Below are positions 7,506 to 63,348 of a stretch of 64,000 bases of DNA, piece by piece (position 1 is the first letter of the stretch; every line of letters starts with the position of its first letter). This DNA is from Candidatus Bathyarchaeota archaeon (GTDB lineage Archaea; Thermoproteota; Bathyarchaeia; Bathyarchaeales; Bathycorpusculaceae), in assembly GCA_963717465.1 (NCBI GenBank), contig OY970340.1, positions 2,368,001-2,432,000 on the forward strand, read 5' to 3'. Below the pieces are notes generated by a model. That model saw nothing but the letters and a program-made list of their open reading frames with translations. It did not search any database and was not told where the DNA came from. The position numbers and the translations under genes were made by a program.

Positions 7506-8342
7506 TTGCATTCTTCTAGGCAATTAATTATAAATTCAATTGTTTGCTTTCTTGCTAATTCCTTCAGGAGAGATACCGCAATGTCCAAAGGAAAATCAAT
7601 CAATGATAATGCAATTCCTATTGAGGCTCAGATTATGGTTAAGAATGCAATAGATTATGAAAAGGCGGGCAAATTTGAGAGCGCTTTGAGCGCACTGGAT
7701 GAGGCTGTTTTGATTCAACCAAACTTTGTTGATGCATGGCTAATGAAGGGCGTAACCTATGGCAAGTTAGGTCAATGCAATGAATCTATAAAATGCTATG
7801 ATAAAGTGATCGAATTAGACCCTGAACATTCAAATGCATTTAGACTTAAAGGGGCGATGTTAATGATGCAAAACTCGTTTGCAAAGGCAACTGATTGCTT
7901 CACAAAAGCCATCGAGTTAGAACCAAGCAACATGGAGCTTCGACATAGCCTGGCAACTTCTTTTCAAAAACAAAAAAAGTTTGAAGATGCATTCAAATGC
8001 TATCAGGACATACTAAAACATGAGCCTAAAAATCCTCAGATTCATTATTTAATCGGAATCACGCTGGGAAACATGGTTGACTATGAAAAAGCTCTCTCAT
8101 ATTTTGAAGAAGCACTTAAGCTAAAGCCTGATTATAACGATGCACACCTCGGCAAGGGGCTTATTTTGGCAAAACTCGGAAGAACTGAAGAAGCAAAACA
8201 ATGCGCTAATAAAGCATTGGGGATAAAAAAAGAATCGGGAAGTACTCATACCGATTCTATTCGTTCGCTAAATGATTCTTGCAGACTAGATTTTGAAGCA
8301 GCTCAAAAAAGATATAAACAAGCATTCTCTCCTCAGCATTAG
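7506..8342 (+). CDS. TPR repeat protein (likely start 7581)
   Basis: About six TPR-like units (e.g. AWLMKGVTYGKLGQCNESIKCYDKVIELDP). Confidence 0.9.
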   Translation: MHSSRQLIINSIVCFLANSFRRDTAMSKGKSINDNAIPIEAQIMVKNAIDYEKAGKFESALSALDEAVLIQPNFVDAWLMKGVTYGKLGQCNESIKCYDKVIELDPEHSNAFRLKGAMLMMQNSFAKATDCFTKAIELEPSNMELRHSLATSFQKQKKFEDAFKCYQDILKHEPKNPQIHYLIGITLGNMVDYEKALSYFEEALKLKPDYNDAHLGKGLILAKLGRTEEAKQCANKALGIKKESGSTHTDSIRSLNDSCRLDFEAAQKRYKQAFSPQH

Positions 8343-8585
8343 GCAATTATGTCTCCCTCAAAACTAGTAAACTATTGAATTAAATTGAATTAAAATGACA
8401 ATTCATCAGTGGTTTAATTCTGTACAGTTTACAGTAAGCCATTAGTAAATTGGAATAATTCAAGACTAATGAATTAATAAAAATAGGACATATTTTTCTT
8501 TCTCGATCAGTTACTTATACCATTTGTTAAAAAATTCTCTAAAAAAACTTTAAAAAAATAAAAAAGGATGTTTGGATTATTCTTC

Positions 8586-10883
8586 TTATGGTCCGATCGG
8601 GCCGATGTTGGCTGAGTATACTTTTGCGAGTGCCGCTTTGAAACACCAAGCTCCAACTTCAGGGCTAAGCTGCTCCGCATCGTTCGGTATTGTAACGTCA
8701 ATGTTCCAGTCAGTCCATCCATGCAAGAATGGCTCCTCACCAGGCAACTCGGGACGCCACCAACCATGCTCAGGCGAAACAATCTTCGGATTAACGCCGA
8801 AATCGTACCGTACTTGTTGCATGCATCTTCCAACAGGAGTCTCAATGTAAACCCACTCGCCATCACCAATACCCATATTACGCGCCGTTAGTGGATGCAA
8901 CTTTACACGTGGAAAAGGCCGCAAATGACGCATCAAACTAATATGCCGCAATTCACCGTGATGAGCTTCCTGGAATCTTGCTCCACTGCACAAAATCAAC
9001 GGAAAGTCCTTAGCGATGTCAGGCGCACTGATCGGTGTCCAAGCACACTCCTGATAATACGGCAATGGATCATAATCGATCTGCTCCAGAATAGTTGAGT
9101 AGAAAGCAACTTTACCCTCAGGAGTACCAAAGCCTCTGACCTGTCCAGTCTCAGGATCAAGCTCCTCATACTTCTTGAACCTAGGTTCATACGGCGGAAC
9201 ACCCTTCCACTCCTCAATCACCTGTTTGCGCGTCCAACCAGCAGGCTCATAGAAAATGTCCTGAAACTCTTCTAGGGTTTTCCATCGCCAAACTTGATCA
9301 ATTTTTTCTTTGCCAAGCGTTCCAACTGCGAGGTCACGGTATATTAAGGCGTCATCTTTTAGATCCCACAAGCCAGGTATTTTCTCAGGCACTGCGCGAT
9401 CGCCAGCGATCTCAAACTCGATTTGACCTTGTCCTGAAACTGTCGCGTAGCCGGAATTTCTCTCAAATTGACTTGTTCCAGGTAATACGTAATCTGCGAT
9501 CATTGCTTCAGGCGTCATTTGAGCACATTCAATGTATACGAATAGTTCAAGCTTCTTCAAACCCTCATAAGCCTTCTTGATGTTTGGATAATTCCTCAAT
9601 GGACCGACTTCGCCAGAAATCATAGCTTTGATTGGATAGGGCTTCTCAGACACCATCGTGTCTATGAACGTTGGCCAGTTTGGACCTCTTGATCCAGAAG
9701 AGTGAGCACCACCCGTCCAGTATCCTTTAGAATCAGCTGCCTGATTAATCAACGGAGCAATCGTAAAGTTCAACGCTCTGTATTTATCGATTCCTACCTG
9801 CTTCATCATTTGTTCAACGTCAGCCTGTTGAACTATGTCATGGATTGCCATTGTTGCATTCATGAATTTCGGTTTTGCGTGTAGGTATTCGCCGCCTTCA
9901 ATATCGATGTTGCCGGTTAACGCGGGCATCATGTATTTTGCGCGAACGTTGCTTAAAGAGTTCCTGCCTGATGATTCAATCGCGTAGGCAAACGGGAAAG
10001 TGCATGGACTGTTCTTCGCTATGAACCTTGCTGCTTCCCTGATCTTCTCAGCTGGAATCCAAGTTATCTCTGCAGCCTTCTCAGGCGTATACTGCTTAGC
10101 CCGTTCCTTGAGCTTGTCAAATCCAAAAGTCCATTTCTCCACAAAATCATGATCATACAGGTCCTCTTCAATGAGCACGTTTATCATTGCCATAAACAAT
10201 GCAGCATCAGTCCCAGGTCTAATCGCCAACCATTTTTCAGAAAGCCTCGCAGTCTCGCTGAATCGCGGATCAATACAGAGCATTTTCGTGCCAGCCTCCA
10301 ATCCCGCAACGAAAGCAGGCCAAGAATAAGTCCAAGACTCACTCGGGTTCGTGCCTGCAACAAAGATACCTTTCGTCTTGCCAGGGATAATCATTGCATA
10401 CGTAATTCCCACGCCATAACCCAATCCTAGGGCTTGGTTCGTGGGTCCAGCTCATGTCTGAGCCGCAATCGAACCAAAATTCGGACTGCCAATCAAAACA
10501 AAATAACTAGCAAGCCCTAAACCTATGTTTGCGGCTCGACCTGTACCCCAGAAACCACAAGTAGTTTCAGCACCATACTTTGCAATGATTTCCTTCATCT
10601 TTTCGGATATTTCGCTTATTGCTTGTGCCCAGGATATTATTTGCCATTTGCCTTCGCCACGTTTGCCAATGCGCTTCATTGGGTACATTGGCCTGTCCTT
10701 GTGGTAAATGTATTCTAAGCTGTACTTCCACTTTTGACAGTACGGCCCGGGGTTAAACGGGCTTTCCCAGTCAGGCTCAACCTTAGTGATTTTTCCGTCT
10801 TCAACTGTCTCGAGCAATTGGCAGGATCCAGTACTGCAGAAACCGCATATGCATCTATGCATCTCTTTTTTAACTTCACTCAT
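8586..10883 (-). CDS. Mo/W-bisPGD oxidoreductase (acetylene-hydratase-like), 765 aa, with in-frame UGA at codon 144 (putative selenocysteine)
   Basis: ORFs 10452-10883 and 8586-10424 are in one frame, separated by TGA (10452-10454) plus 9 sense codons. N-terminal 4Fe-4S motif CGFCSTGSC..C, IDPRFSETA, RPGTDAAL, ADYVLP, C-terminal Molydop_binding domain. Confidence 0.85.
10408..10445 (-). promoter_or_regulatory. candidate bacterial-type SECIS hairpin immediately 3' of the in-frame UGA
   Basis: mRNA UGA-GCUGGA-CCCACG-AA-CCA-AGCCC-UAGGAUU-GGGUU-A-UGG-CGUGGG; three stacked helices, G-rich apical loop about 24 nt after the UGA. Confidence 0.6.
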
Positions 10884-11288
10884 TATTTAATCTCCTAACT
10901 CATTTATCTCCTAATTCTTGTTTGCTTCTTCAGCACCGAATTGGATGTAACAGAAAATTAATAAAACTTGCGGTTTTATTGTCGAAAATTTCAACAATTT
11001 GTCATTGTGTATTATTTCTAACTTACATTTTGCAACATTGTTACAAATATTAGTAATTTTTTAAAACATATTCTCAAACAGTTCCGTCATAATTTTGCGA
11101 TAAAGTTCAGGGTTAATCAGTTATCTAAGTCTGTTAGTCCGAGAAATCCCATTTAACATTGGCTCAATTATAACCTTAAGCAAATCGACTTAACCAATAA
11201 GCGAATGCAGAAGTTCATATGGCTGAACTTAACAAGTTTTATTTTTATCATTTGTGTTACTCTAGTCCTTAATTATATGCAATAATTT

Positions 11289-11810
11289 TTAAGGTTGAAA
11301 AAGTGACTCCAAATTTCGCAGTGAAAAGGGTTTTGGAAACTTTTTGCCCGTGTAAAACATGAAGCTGTTTGTTTCAACATTTGGACGAAACATTGATTCT
11401 TTTTGCATTCTGTCAGATAGTTCTAGATAACTGTTGTATGTTTTGTGTGCTGATACGACTACCCAAGTGGTTCCTGCGAAACTTTGCTCCATAAACACGC
11501 ACAGTATTTCGGGCTGTTTTTGAATCAATTCTTGAGCTTCTTTAGCTTGTGCTGGTGTAATCACATCACTCGTTTTTGCGAATGAAAATACAATAAAGTC
11601 TAAGCCCATTTTGTGGAAGTCAGGTATTACAGTGTATTCTTTTATGTAGCCCTCTTGCTCTAACTTCTTTTTTCGTCTGGACAACGTTGCATTGCTTATT
11701 CCTAAGGTCTTGGCAACAGCTCTATCACTTTTGCCGCCAAGCGACATTAGAGCAAACAAAGCCTTCAGGTTTTCCTGTGCTTTCTTGTCCGACGTGTCTT
11801 GCTTGCTCAT
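11289..11810 (-). CDS. Lrp/AsnC family transcriptional regulator
   Basis: HTH 'KSDRAVAKTLGISNATLSRRKKKLEQEGYIKEYTVIPDFHKMG'. Confidence 0.85.
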   Translation of the reverse strand: MSKQDTSDKKAQENLKALFALMSLGGKSDRAVAKTLGISNATLSRRKKKLEQEGYIKEYTVIPDFHKMGLDFIVFSFAKTSDVITPAQAKEAQELIQKQPEILCVFMEQSFAGTTWVVVSAHKTYNSYLELSDRMQKESMFRPNVETNSFMFYTGKKFPKPFSLRNLESLFQP

Positions 11811-12023: not shown

Positions 12024-14057
12024 TTGATAGAAGTGAGTGTAAAATTTAAATATCTTTTTTCTCCGTTGAAAATAGGGCCAGTGACAATTCCTAACAGAAT
12101 AATGTTGACTGGTCATAGTAATTTTCATGTAGATGAAACGGGAAACCCGACAGAATATTTGGCGTACTATCAGGCTGAAAGAGCAAAGGGCGGCTGTGGG
12201 CTAATATGCTATGGATTTATCTCAGTATATCCGAAGGAAATGGCGTGGGAGTATCCAAACTTCCGTTCTAGTTATACTACGCGTGCGCTTATACTTAATG
12301 CATATCCGCGTGGTCCTGACGAGGATTCTATTCCATCTCTGAAGAAAATTACTGATTTGTGTCACGATGCTGGCACTGGAACAAAGGTTTTTGCTCAGAT
12401 GGGTGCTAGTGGATGTTGGGAGGGTAGATGGGCTCCTTCCGAAACTGTAGACCCAGCAGATCCAAGAAAAACCAATATGGAAATGACTGAGGAGCAAATT
12501 GAAGCGGTGCTTGATGGTTTTGGAAAATCTGCCAAGAACATGTTAAAAGCAGGCTTTGATGGTATTGAAATTCATGATCATGGTGGCTTAGTACATCAGT
12601 TCATGTCTCCATTAACGAATAGGCGAAAAGACAAGTGGGGCGGAAGTTTAGATAATCGAATGAGATTCTTTTATGAAGCAATTAAAAGATGCAGAGAAAA
12701 CATGAGCAGTAATATGGCTTTGATTACTAGGCTTTGTGTTGATGAATTCGTTCCTAACGGAATAGGCGTGATGGATGGCGTGGAGATTGCAAAGCTACTG
12801 GAAGATAAGGTTGATGGTCTTGATATTGACATTGCAACTGAACCCGCATCCCTAAACGTTATAGTTGCTCCACTGTATATGGAGCCTGGCTACCAACTGT
12901 ATGGAGTTGAAGCGGTGAAAGAAGTCATAAAGAAGATACCTATAGGTTGTGTTGGTAGAATCAATGATGCAATGTTTGCTGAAAAAATCTTGGCTGAGGG
13001 CAAAGCTGACATTATAGGCATTTGCAGGGGACAGATTGCCGATCCTGAATTCTGTAACAAAGCTAAAGCAGGAAGACTAGACGATATAAGACCCTGCTTG
13101 TATGAGAATGAGGGTTGCATGAAAACAGGTTCTGTACAATGCACTGTAAACCCCACTAATGGATGCGAGAAGGCTTGGGGAATTGGAACAATTAAGTCTG
13201 CTGCAAAGAAAAAGAAGATTTTGGTTGCTGGTGCGGGTCCTGCAGGAATGGAATTTGCTAGAATTGCAGCTACCAGAGGGCACAATGTTACCATTTACGA
13301 AAAGTCAAATGATGTTGGAGGAGCCATTAATTTAGCTATGAAGTTGCCGGGAAGAATGGAATATGATGGTTTCAAGAGATGGCTAAAGATTCAGCTTGAC
13401 AAGTTGGGAGTTAAAATTGTCCTTAATAAGGAGGTTACGCCTGAACTTGTTAAGAGCGAAAATCCGGATGCTGTAGTAGTTGCTATTGGAGCAGACCCCA
13501 TGCGTGACGGCGACAACGCAGGCATGTATGCCGCAATTGATGGATGGAATCAGCCAAACGTTTGTGTAGGTGAAGACATACTTGAAGGCAAAGTTGACAT
13601 CAACAAACTTGGACCAAGAGTAATCATTTATGATCAAGTTGGCTATGATGAAGGCTTGGGAATTGCTGAAATGATTGCAGATGCTGGAAAACAAGTTGAT
13701 ATAAGGTCTGCAAGCTACTTTATCGGCGGTGCTGATATATTCCCGACTTTGCAGTTTGCACAATTGTTCCAGCGTCCAATGGAGAAAGGTGTGAAGCTTA
13801 GTCCAATGTCGTTGATGACTTACATTAGTGGGAACACAGTCGGGTTCATGAACAGTTTTACTCATGAAATGTACGAAGTCGAAGCTGACAATATTGTTCT
13901 CTGTGTAAGTAAAAAACCAAATTCTGAACTGTTCAAGAAGTTAATGGCGGCAGGATACAAACACAACGTAAACCTATACAAGATCGGCGATGCAAACGCT
14001 CCACACAATATCTGCGACGCCGTATACTACGGCCACGGCTTGGGAAGGGAAATCTAA
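12024..14057 (+). CDS. OYE/FadH-type NADH:flavin oxidoreductase (FMN barrel, 4Fe-4S, FAD domain)
   Basis: AGFDGIEIH, NRRKDKWGGSLDNRMRF, RPCLYENEGC..CTVNP, GAGPAG Rossmann motif. Confidence 0.9.
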   Translation: MIEVSVKFKYLFSPLKIGPVTIPNRIMLTGHSNFHVDETGNPTEYLAYYQAERAKGGCGLICYGFISVYPKEMAWEYPNFRSSYTTRALILNAYPRGPDEDSIPSLKKITDLCHDAGTGTKVFAQMGASGCWEGRWAPSETVDPADPRKTNMEMTEEQIEAVLDGFGKSAKNMLKAGFDGIEIHDHGGLVHQFMSPLTNRRKDKWGGSLDNRMRFFYEAIKRCRENMSSNMALITRLCVDEFVPNGIGVMDGVEIAKLLEDKVDGLDIDIATEPASLNVIVAPLYMEPGYQLYGVEAVKEVIKKIPIGCVGRINDAMFAEKILAEGKADIIGICRGQIADPEFCNKAKAGRLDDIRPCLYENEGCMKTGSVQCTVNPTNGCEKAWGIGTIKSAAKKKKILVAGAGPAGMEFARIAATRGHNVTIYEKSNDVGGAINLAMKLPGRMEYDGFKRWLKIQLDKLGVKIVLNKEVTPELVKSENPDAVVVAIGADPMRDGDNAGMYAAIDGWNQPNVCVGEDILEGKVDINKLGPRVIIYDQVGYDEGLGIAEMIADAGKQVDIRSASYFIGGADIFPTLQFAQLFQRPMEKGVKLSPMSLMTYISGNTVGFMNSFTHEMYEVEADNIVLCVSKKPNSELFKKLMAAGYKHNVNLYKIGDANAPHNICDAVYYGHGLGREI

Positions 14058-62460: not shown

Positions 62461-62543
62461 TGCACTGGTGGAGATTTGAGTCCACAACCCGCTAGCGATA
62501 TGGTCCTAAGCCCTACTCCTTTGACCAGACTTAGCGCAGATGC
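62461..62543 (-). pseudogene. degenerate tRNA-Leu(TAG)
   Basis: AAGTCTGGTCAAAGG D-arm, TAGGG-CTTAGGA-CCATA anticodon arm, long variable arm, damaged T-arm (CTCAAAT) and damaged 5' acceptor strand. Confidence 0.7.
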
Positions 62544-62574
62544 AGTCTCCCAAAAGACCGCCGATGTCGCCAAA

Positions 62575-63348
62575 TCATGAAGTTTGTTCTTCGGCTAATA
62601 ATGCTGCTCCTAAAGCGCCGTTTATTTGGGGTTCTGGTGGGGCGAAAACTTTGTATCCAAGAATTTTTTCAAGGGTCATTTTCATTCCCAAACTTTTTGC
62701 TACACCGCCAGTGAAAATCACGTCATTTTGCAATCCAACTTGTTTTGCCATTCCCAGCATGCGTTTAGAAATAGCTTCATACAGGCCTGCAACTATGACC
62801 TCGCGTTTTTCTCCTTGGGCTATTAACGAGACAACCTCTGACTCTGCGAAGACCGTGCACATGCTGCTGATTATCGCTGCTCGTTCAGCGGAAGCTGCCA
62901 GTTCACTAAGCGATTGAATAGCAGTATCCAAGGTCCTAGCCATGACTTCCAGAAACCTTCCTGTCCCAGCAGCACATTTATCATTCATCAAAAAATTGCT
63001 TATCCGTCCATCCTCGTCAAGGCTGATCACTTTGCTGTCTTGTCCTCCAATGTCAATGATCGTTCGGGCGCTTGGAAAAAGGTGCCTTGCACCCTTAGCA
63101 TGCGCTGTAATCTCGGTAACAACACTGTTCGAAAAATCAATATTCCTTCGACCATAACCAGTTGAAATTATCCTGGTCAAGTCAGAACGAGTGATGTTCG
63201 CGGCAGCCAAGGACTTGTTTAAGGCGTTTTCGGAAGCAGCCTTGACGTTTGCGCCTGTATTAACGATTGAATAGGCTAAGGTTTCTTTGTTCTTGAGAAT
63301 GACGGCTTTTGTCGCTGCTGCTCCTGCATCGATTCCTGCGAAAAACAA
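62575..63348 (-). CDS. 2-hydroxyacyl-CoA dehydratase activase (ASKHA ATPase)
   Basis: STGYGR, IDIGGQDSK, MNDKCAAGTG, SSMCTVFAESE, GGVA. Confidence 0.92.
   Translation of the reverse strand: MFFAGIDAGAAATKAVILKNKETLAYSIVNTGANVKAASENALNKSLAAANITRSDLTRIISTGYGRRNIDFSNSVVTEITAHAKGARHLFPSARTIIDIGGQDSKVISLDEDGRISNFLMNDKCAAGTGRFLEVMARTLDTAIQSLSELAASAERAAIISSMCTVFAESEVVSLIAQGEKREVIVAGLYEAISKRMLGMAKQVGLQNDVIFTGGVAKSLGMKMTLEKILGYKVFAPPEPQINGALGAALLAEEQTS

Follow-up and report, generated by a model that had tools for sequence, protein, structure and literature searches.

A SECIS-like hairpin directly downstream of an in-frame UGA codon in a bathyarchaeal gene family

We analyzed a 64,000-nucleotide stretch of the genome of a Candidatus Bathyarchaeota archaeon (GenBank assembly GCA_963717465.1, contig OY970340.1, positions 2,368,001 to 2,432,000), here called the window, and within it a stem-loop that lies inside an open reading frame a few nucleotides past an in-frame UGA. 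An initial annotation had described this stem-loop as a hairpin resembling a selenocysteine insertion sequence (SECIS), placed as in bacteria within the coding sequence (CDS) of an archaeal gene, with no evident element in the untranslated region (UTR). Our results support that description. The annotation had also proposed to compare the hairpin with codon-shuffled controls, to compare UGA-containing with cysteine (Cys) homologues, and to look for similar hairpins past UGA codons in genes such as hdrA. The source genome is one contig of 3.05 Mb with 40% G+C. Its long open frames (n = 1381) end in TAA (784), TGA (350), or TAG (247), and TGA is otherwise an ordinary, common stop codon in this genome. 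The main features of the locus, in window positions, are as follows; selenocysteine is abbreviated Sec and molybdenum/tungsten Mo/W.

8586..10883, minus strand: gene for an acetylene-hydratase-like Mo/W-bis-pyranopterin guanine dinucleotide (bisPGD) enzyme of 765 amino acids with putative Sec at residue 144 (from the translation with TGA read as U, Pfam, and the PDB relative)
10452..10454, minus strand: in-frame UGA, codon 144, putatively Sec (aligned with Cys in 2e7z and in homologues, and with TGA in 11 paralogues)
10446..10451, minus strand: spacer GCUGGA, 6 nt, from the UGA to the hairpin base (shown as paired neither by the minimum free energy (MFE) fold nor by the pair-probability profile)
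10408..10445, minus strand: SECIS-like hairpin, 38 nt (from shuffles, conservation, compensatory changes, and a trough in synonymous variation)

The 765-codon frame contains a single in-frame TGA, and its product carries the Pfam domains Fe4S4 (PF04879), Molybdopterin (PF00384), and Molydop_binding (PF01568). The best solved relative is acetylene hydratase (PDB 2e7z; E-value 3.9e-108; residues 11-756 aligned), and by sequence the protein is a member of the acetylene hydratase branch of Mo/W-bisPGD (MopB) enzymes, with homology over its full length. In the alignment, U144 stands opposite the Cys at chain position 138 of 2e7z, which we take to be the tungsten ligand, and we infer that UGA-144 is almost certainly decoded as Sec, at a metal-ligand position.

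We find the UGA, the spacer, and the hairpin with coordinates, sequence, and pairings exactly as first described. A lower stem of 6 bp joins CCCACG (10445-10440) with CGUGGG (10413-10408). Above it lie an internal loop with AA unpaired (10439-10438), a middle stem of 3 bp (CCA, 10437-10435, with UGG, 10416-10414), and an upper stem of 5 bp (AGCCC, 10434-10430, with GGGUU, 10422-10418; A10417 is bulged). The apical loop UAGGAUU (7 nt, 10423-10429) begins 22 nt past the UGA. An alternative apex had also been claimed, in which an A-U pair closes a GGAU loop next to a bulged U; it can indeed be folded, but at -17.0 versus -19.9 kcal/mol it is 2.9 kcal/mol dearer than the MFE structure. Using RNAfold, a 66-nt segment has -21.8 kcal/mol versus a mean of -15.2 (sd 2.8) for dinucleotide shuffles (z = -2.36; 3/200 as stable). 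The 48 nt past the UGA have -19.9 kcal/mol versus a mean of -12.2 (sd 3.1) for synonymous-codon shuffles (z = -2.48; 8/500 as stable), so that the hairpin beats the codon-shuffled controls. Taken singly, the hairpin of the window copy is only moderately unusual, and the weight lies with the comparative evidence.

Hairpins past UGA and past cysteine codons

We identified 11 paralogues in the genome with TGA at the codon equivalent to 144, eight of them intact frames and three broken by frameshifts or stops:

Genome contig positions 124642, 132694, 480584, 617083, 1134713, 1211628, 1822504, 2055182, 2378454 (the window copy), 2495990, and 2799134: UGA-bearing Mo/W enzyme paralogues

A hairpin of -16.0 to -22.2 kcal/mol follows the UGA in 11/11 copies, after a spacer of 6 nt in ten and of 7 nt in one. 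Against synonymous-codon shuffles the copies have z-scores of -1.5 to -4.0 and are equalled in stability by 1 to 42 of the 500 shuffles; the strongest z-scores belong to the three most divergent paralogues, whose peptide differs inside the helix. Of the cells in the 11-row alignment, 89% pair, versus 23-47% with slid partners; 5 of 14 pairs have changed on both sides, and 0/500 shuffles attain the covariation score. RNAalifold retains 11 pairs, of which 4 are compensatory. A 43%-identical paralogue has CCAACG/CGUUGG where the others have CCCACG/CGUGGG. The loop is UAGGAUU-like in 9/11 paralogues, while the 5' internal-loop bases (alignment columns 16-17) occur as AA, TA, AT, TT, TC, and GT. 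Synonymous variation, calculated from seven intact paralogues with the 43%-identical copy left out, is 0.25 over the 15 codons past U versus 0.43 +/- 0.076 gene-wide (rank 13 among 718 codon windows), and the codon window that begins at the hairpin base has the second-lowest value in the gene. These data show that the structure of the hairpin is conserved beyond the demand of the protein sequence.

Homologues with Cys provide the complementary comparison. The codon aligned to UGA-144 is TGC or TGT in 17/17 archaeal homologues. Of 157 aligned bacterial or metagenome homologues, 141 have a Cys codon at this place and the remaining 16 are probably misaligned; TGA occurs in 0/157. In the 17 archaeal Cys homologues, which belong to the same class and have 32-40% identity, the sequence past the Cys codon folds at -6.5 to -14.2 kcal/mol, with no comparable helix in any of them, and none is found in a Cys paralogue of the same genome. 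Bacterial Cys homologues have a mean fold of -14.1 kcal/mol, with 17/141 at or below -19 kcal/mol, but their raw energies are an unfair control because these sequences are G+C-rich.

There is no match to the Mo/W enzyme at E <= 1e-50 in 24 same-genus and 16 same-order genomes (0/40), and homologues outside this genome have 27-35% identity in genome contigs and 28-41% in metagenome contigs. Among 401 genomes of the class, 14 other genomes have a match (34-42% identical), none with TGA. Relatives of the 765-amino-acid protein among NCBI proteins are 63-79% identical; since close outside relatives are not among the DNA compared, the covariation rests on the paralogues. The close database relatives, of 560-607 amino acids, span just about 73-79% of the protein, and gene callers already end these proteins at the UGA.

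We find the same arrangement in a gene unrelated to the Mo/W enzyme. An HdrA2-MvhD fusion gene (P0125), which matches NF040770 at 1074 bits, under the model's curated cut-off of 1100, and also carries a VhuD-like domain, has two in-frame UGAs, at sites 212 and 682, and the search suggested for hdrA genes finds a hairpin at +6 past each. Full-length HdrA2 orthologues with two TGAs occur in five other genomes among the 401 of the class. The +6 hairpins are present in 6/6 genomes with Sec-type HdrA2, at -20.7 to -26.8 kcal/mol for site 212 and about -23 kcal/mol for site 682, as compared to -4.9 to -13.1 and -8.6 to -20.8 kcal/mol, respectively, in 24 fetched Cys orthologues. The three independent helices, one in the Mo enzyme and one at each of the two HdrA sites, have in common the 6-nt spacing and apical loops that begin 19-23 nt past the UGA, and no strict loop motif is common to them. 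Across the families, the helices differ in register.

In the SelD gene (L213:301-1332, plus strand; also L246 and L249), the Sec codon is residue 18 and is followed at +1 by a hairpin of the form AGCUG...CAGCU, which is present in 3/3 Sec forms and incomplete in 3/3 Cys forms. In genome G247, a strong hairpin lies directly past the SelD stop codon.

A scan that was not seeded on known selenoprotein genes covered 4019 in-frame TGAs with open flanks, 658 of them coding-like. Folds at or below -16 kcal/mol follow 17/658 coding-like TGAs versus 0/694 control Cys/Trp codons, and these 17 positives are the 11 Mo/W paralogues, the first HdrA2-MvhD UGA, and five that are explained as non-Sec.

Several positives of the scan were rejected. 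The positive at contig position 157563 is a hairpin in a 5' UTR and not a Sec site; this hairpin (157520-157566, minus strand; -20.8 kcal/mol) stands just upstream of the start codon (ATG) of a gene for a membrane protein of about 200 amino acids and may be a 5'-UTR regulatory structure. The positive at 556764 marks where an Ftr gene starts, the one at 2495995 is on the antisense strand of a Mo/W paralogue, and the translations at 645570 and 1611389 are not protein-like. At window position 62577 the TGA is an ordinary stop, since the BcrAD_BadFG Pfam domain is complete before it; the hairpin past the TGA of this BcrAD_BadFG-type ATPase gene (window 62578-63348, minus strand) occupies window 62506-62577 (minus strand) at -19.8 kcal/mol. 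Another candidate, P0126, is a 413-codon frame (L212:301-1539, minus strand) with two in-frame TGAs (residues 203 and 263) and a hairpin past each. Pfam, NCBIfam, and PDB sequences give no match for it, 5 Sec-using genomes contain no orthologue, and its family is not recognisable; we do not count it as evidence for Sec.

Selenocysteine machinery and gene flanks

Two explanations for the bacterial-style placement had been offered in the initial annotation, namely that the archaeon uses a bacterial-type SelB/SECIS system or that the gene came from a Sec-using bacterium. The evidence speaks against both. The genome encodes SepSecS (488.9 bits versus a cut-off of 224.85), two PSTK-aSelB fusions of about 730 amino acids with KTI12, GTP_EFTU, D2, and aSelB_III domains, and a Sec-containing SelD whose gene has an in-frame TGA; it also has two tRNA-Sec genes. 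The PSTK scores of the fusions (151 and 134 bits) are under the curated cut-off of 290.5, with Pfam KTI12 E-values of 1e-34 and 6e-39. Both SelB homologues have aSelB_III and no SelB-wing domain. SelA was not found in the genome (best match 20.5 bits versus a cut-off of 267.9), and neither was SelB-wing_3 (PF09107) at E <= 0.1, a search in which the E. coli control matched. SepSecS, PSTK, aSelB, SelD, and tRNA-Sec form a complete archaeal/eukaryal Sec pathway. Given that the organism is an archaeon with an archaeal Sec pathway, the option of a bacterial-type SelB is removed. A bacterial source for the gene does not hold up either, with TGA in none of the 157 bacterial or metagenome homologues and an equal +6 design in HdrA2-MvhD of six Bathyarchaeia genomes.

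The named homologues of the fusion protein are from Bathyarchaeota/Bathyarchaeia, and the fusion has already been published for Bathyarchaeota (available text of PMC8762117 and PMC9499178). The two fusion genes (L004:670-2868, plus strand, and L005:1081-3273, minus strand) are 54% identical. The two tRNA-Sec genes (L214:296-380 and L215:239-324) share 97% identity, with differences where the acceptor stem ends. Beside the second tRNA-Sec gene lies fusion copy 2, which has the unusual GTPase motifs GHCKHGKT, EMPGN for DLPGH, and SKID for NKID. The five other Sec-using genomes have one fusion gene each.

We then consider the flanks, where archaeal SECIS elements would be expected. Two features border the Mo/W enzyme gene:

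8541..8565, minus strand: three oligo-T runs, 20-45 nt past the TAA (from the sequence; T-runs also in paralogues)
10891..10897, minus strand: Shine-Dalgarno-like UAGGAGA, with GGAG 8 nt before the ATG (the sole 5'-flank block common to most paralogues)

The T-runs (8565-8560, 8558-8552, and 8547-8541), the first of which is 20 nt past the TAA (8588-8586), are probably an archaeal transcription terminator and would leave little room for a 3'-UTR SECIS. The 3' flank had been described as A/T runs with no evident hairpin, in agreement with its 23% G+C and a 120-nt fold of just -9.0 kcal/mol. A run of T5 or longer lies 5-30 nt past the stop in 7/8 intact paralogues, whose 3' flanks fold weakly, and T-runs lie 10-13 nt past the stop of HdrA2 in 3/6 genomes. 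Among the eight intact paralogues, the 3' flanks have no similarity to one another, and the 5' flanks have in common only the ribosome-binding site and a few blocks of 13-17 nt. Overall, neither the 3' nor the 5' flanks of these eight yielded a conserved or structured UTR element, and there is no Rfam SECIS match at E <= 10 in window 8000-11200. The initial annotation had named an archaeal-type Sec system with UTR SECIS as the contrary case; the archaeal system is present, and the UTR SECIS was not found.

Interpretation of the in-gene hairpin

Comparison with known SECIS types places this hairpin between categories. Like the bacterial SECIS (bSECIS; prototype E. coli fdhF), it lies in the CDS directly past the UGA, here at +6 nt within a 765-codon frame. 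According to the available text of PMC13188914, the bSECIS model has an apical loop of 3-9 nt, an upper stem of 4-16 bp, a UGA-loop distance of 16-37 nt, and an MFE at or below -7.5 kcal/mol. The archaeal hairpin is likewise a single stem-loop, with a 7-nt loop, 5-bp upper and 3-bp middle stems, a distance of 22 nt, and -19.9 kcal/mol, and it has GG in its loop. It differs in that its MFE loop starts U, A, with no G among its first two nucleotides (GGAU forms only in the alternative fold, at +2.9 kcal/mol), and in that its helix begins after a fixed 6-nt spacer. In addition, bSECIS is read by the C-terminal winged-helix domains of SelB in a SelA pathway, neither of which was found in this archaeon. 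With the eaSECIS of Methanococcus and Methanopyrus, as described in the accessible portions of PMC13188914 and PMC9622424, the hairpin shares service to an archaeal Sec machinery and a helix of two parts that has an internal loop and, below the loop, G-C pairs. However, eaSECIS is located in the 3' (rarely 5') UTR and requires two invariant adenines in a GAA_A internal loop, whereas the present hairpin lies within the CDS at a constant distance of 6 nt and its internal-loop bases vary. In Methanococcus the distance from UGA to SECIS is 88-679 nt, with no strict limit (same portion of PMC9622424). The Sec codon redefinition element (SRE) of eukaryotic SEPN1 (PMC2248747, in part) is also a CDS stem-loop a few nucleotides past a Sec UGA that works with an archaeal/eukaryal-type elongation factor, but it merely assists a 3'-UTR SECIS, and no UTR SECIS is evident here. 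Asgard eSECIS-like elements are another non-euryarchaeal variant of the archaeal SECIS; those described in the available text of PMC11227280 are in the 3' UTR and have a GA_[G/A]A kink-turn core, neither of which is true of this hairpin, and the AUGA/GA quartet of eukaryotic and Asgard kink-turn SECIS elements is absent from it. Lastly, the Bathyarchaeota PSTK-aSelB system (Mukai et al. 2022, PMC8762117) is present here in two copies of the fusion; that report describes the fusion and, as far as its main text goes, in which the word SECIS occurs 0 times, no recoding signal.

Based on these data, we propose that Bathyarchaeia use a UGA-proximal, in-gene SECIS-like signal together with archaeal machinery, and we consider this likely. 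The hairpin would be a cis-acting signal that turns UGA-144 from stop into Sec locally, from within the CDS, and its partners would be tRNA-Sec, SerRS, PSTK fused to aSelB, SepSecS, and SelD. When the UGA occupies the A site, a spacer of 6 nt would put the helix base at the mRNA entry channel. A helix at the mRNA entrance is the geometry of frameshift and readthrough stimulators and of the bacterial SECIS. The ribosome may pause and leave the UGA exposed. About 22 nt downstream, the apical loop may come to lie near the factor-binding side, where it could be contacted by the PSTK-aSelB:GTP:Sec-tRNA-Sec complex, an adaptor, or a ribosomal protein; in bacteria, SelB binds the SECIS loop at a like position. 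Such a contact would favour Sec-tRNA over the release factor aRF1. The hairpin would thereby both stall the ribosome on the UGA and recruit or position PSTK-aSelB:GTP:Sec-tRNA-Sec, with recognition of the loop being sequence-specific or the helix acting mainly as a roadblock.

A number of observations weigh against this proposal. The z-scores of single copies are modest (-1.5 to -2.5 for most paralogues), the covariation term of RNAalifold is small (-0.25), and the lower stem is invariant among ten close paralogues, so the covariation depends on a small number of events among related sequences. All paralogues are kin, and the association between Sec and hairpin in the Mo/W enzyme may be a single evolutionary event. 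Similarly, the six Sec-type HdrA2 genes (82-86% identical) form one clade and may represent a single event at each site instead of six. The Cys range at HdrA site 682 nears the Sec values with its lower end of -20.8 kcal/mol, although site 212 is clear. SelD, the third verified selenoprotein gene, is without the +6 design, its hairpin being small and at +1 (-9 to -12 kcal/mol). Hairpins matching a loose descriptor occur past 88/115368 random TGA trinucleotides and past 75/94452 TGY/TGG trinucleotides, a base rate of about 8/10000 in a prefiltered genome-wide fold; because it is as common past random TGA as past TGY/TGG, the shape is not diagnostic by itself. The presence of the hairpin at these particular codons is not chance. 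Finally, no RNA-binding domain of aSelB that would fit such a hairpin is known to us, and a sequence-divergent UTR element is possible.

The main alternative, which we regard as unlikely, is that the hairpin is an accessory SRE, a SEPN1-like readthrough helper, and that the true SECIS elsewhere on the mRNA recruits aSelB. Howard et al. in 2005 reportedly described an SRE spacing of 6 nt, the same as here. An archaeal/eukaryal type of Sec machinery fits this explanation, as does SelD, whose lack of a +6 hairpin implies that another signal may exist, and a stem-loop downstream of a Sec UGA is known to stimulate readthrough (PMC2248747, in part). Against it, the flanks of the eight intact paralogues yielded nothing conserved or structured, oligo-T closes in 5-30 nt past the stop in 7/8 paralogues and 10-13 nt past it in 3/6 HdrA2 genes, and Rfam yields no SECIS match; the hairpin of the gene itself is without the eaSECIS and kink-turn motifs. 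Alternatively, the hairpin may be a pure roadblock with no specific recognition, UGA-144 being read by Sec-tRNA-Sec or by a near-cognate Cys or Trp tRNA. The fixed 6-7-nt spacing is that of known readthrough and frameshift stimulators, and a Cys at residue 144 could still ligate the metal. We nevertheless think this decidedly improbable: the genome maintains a complete and duplicated Sec pathway, and although no strict loop motif unites the Mo enzyme and the two HdrA sites, the loops are conserved within each family (as in the UAGGAUU-like loop of 9/11 paralogues) and all lie 19-25 nt past the UGA.

Two further explanations have very little in their favour. If the gene family had come from a Sec-using bacterium with a bSECIS, the hairpin would be a relic or would be read by a bacterial-type factor. 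The hairpin does satisfy 3/4 of the structural criteria for bSECIS in its MFE fold and 4/4 in the alternative fold (by the model in the available text of PMC13188914), and the majority of retrieved homologues are bacterial. This origin is nonetheless largely refuted, and we give it a very small chance, as the aligned bacterial or metagenome homologues never have TGA, SelA and the SelB winged helix were not found in the genome, a relic would keep neither compensatory changes nor a lowered synonymous variation across 11 copies, and the archaeal HdrA2 gene has an equal design. The remaining explanation is a coding artefact, in which the conserved peptide (GPT...GVG) and chance produce the helix. 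Synonymous shuffles already reach about -12 to -14 kcal/mol, which indicates that the peptide predisposes to pairing, and similar hairpins exist at the base rate given above. However, the observed folds beat the shuffles in 11/11 copies, pairing is kept in copies with different peptides inside the helix, and neither the trough in synonymous variation nor the Sec-versus-Cys contrast in HdrA is in line with an artefact, which we therefore consider highly improbable.

Reviews up to 2026 put archaeal SECIS elements in UTRs (PMC13188914, PMC11227280, and PMC9499178, in the text available of each), and the factor that binds the archaeal SECIS is still unknown according to the accessible part of PMC9622424. 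In the literature searched, supplements aside, no description of an archaeal SECIS within the CDS came up. The in-gene arrangement has to date been described only in bacteria, and the Sec machinery of the host in question here is archaeal. A broader form of our proposal, for and against which we see the case as evenly balanced, is that Bathyarchaeia with the PSTK-aSelB fusion decode Sec via in-gene hairpins at a fixed 6-nt spacing, and that in this genome the divergent fusion copy 2, whose GTPase motifs are altered and which has its own tRNA-Sec, may be reserved for the 11-copy Sec enzyme family. If an in-gene signal read by archaeal machinery is correct, it would represent a third SECIS mode, with bacterial placement and an archaeal reader; the rule that bacteria use the CDS and archaea and eukaryotes the UTR would not be a domain-level divide, and local signalling would either be ancestral or have been re-invented by convergence. 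This bears on how SECIS elements moved between CDS and UTR in evolution. Local marking of Sec together with a PSTK-fused aSelB would also offer a short, defined RNA-protein pair for studying the recruitment of archaeal SelB. In practical terms, selenoprotein finders that seek 3'-UTR elements would overlook bathyarchaeial selenoproteins. A putative Sec-containing branch of acetylene-hydratase-like enzymes is revealed here as well.

Gene neighbourhood

The same-strand upstream neighbour of the Mo/W enzyme gene encodes a winged-helix helix-turn-helix protein (window 11289-11810, minus strand). Among the neighbours in the window, no gene for an electron-transfer or membrane-anchor subunit adjoins the Mo/W enzyme gene. 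A divergent neighbour encodes a fusion of Old-Yellow-Enzyme and pyridine-nucleotide-disulphide oxidoreductase (window 12024-14057, plus strand), and the downstream neighbour encodes a tetratricopeptide repeat protein (window 7506-8342, plus strand).

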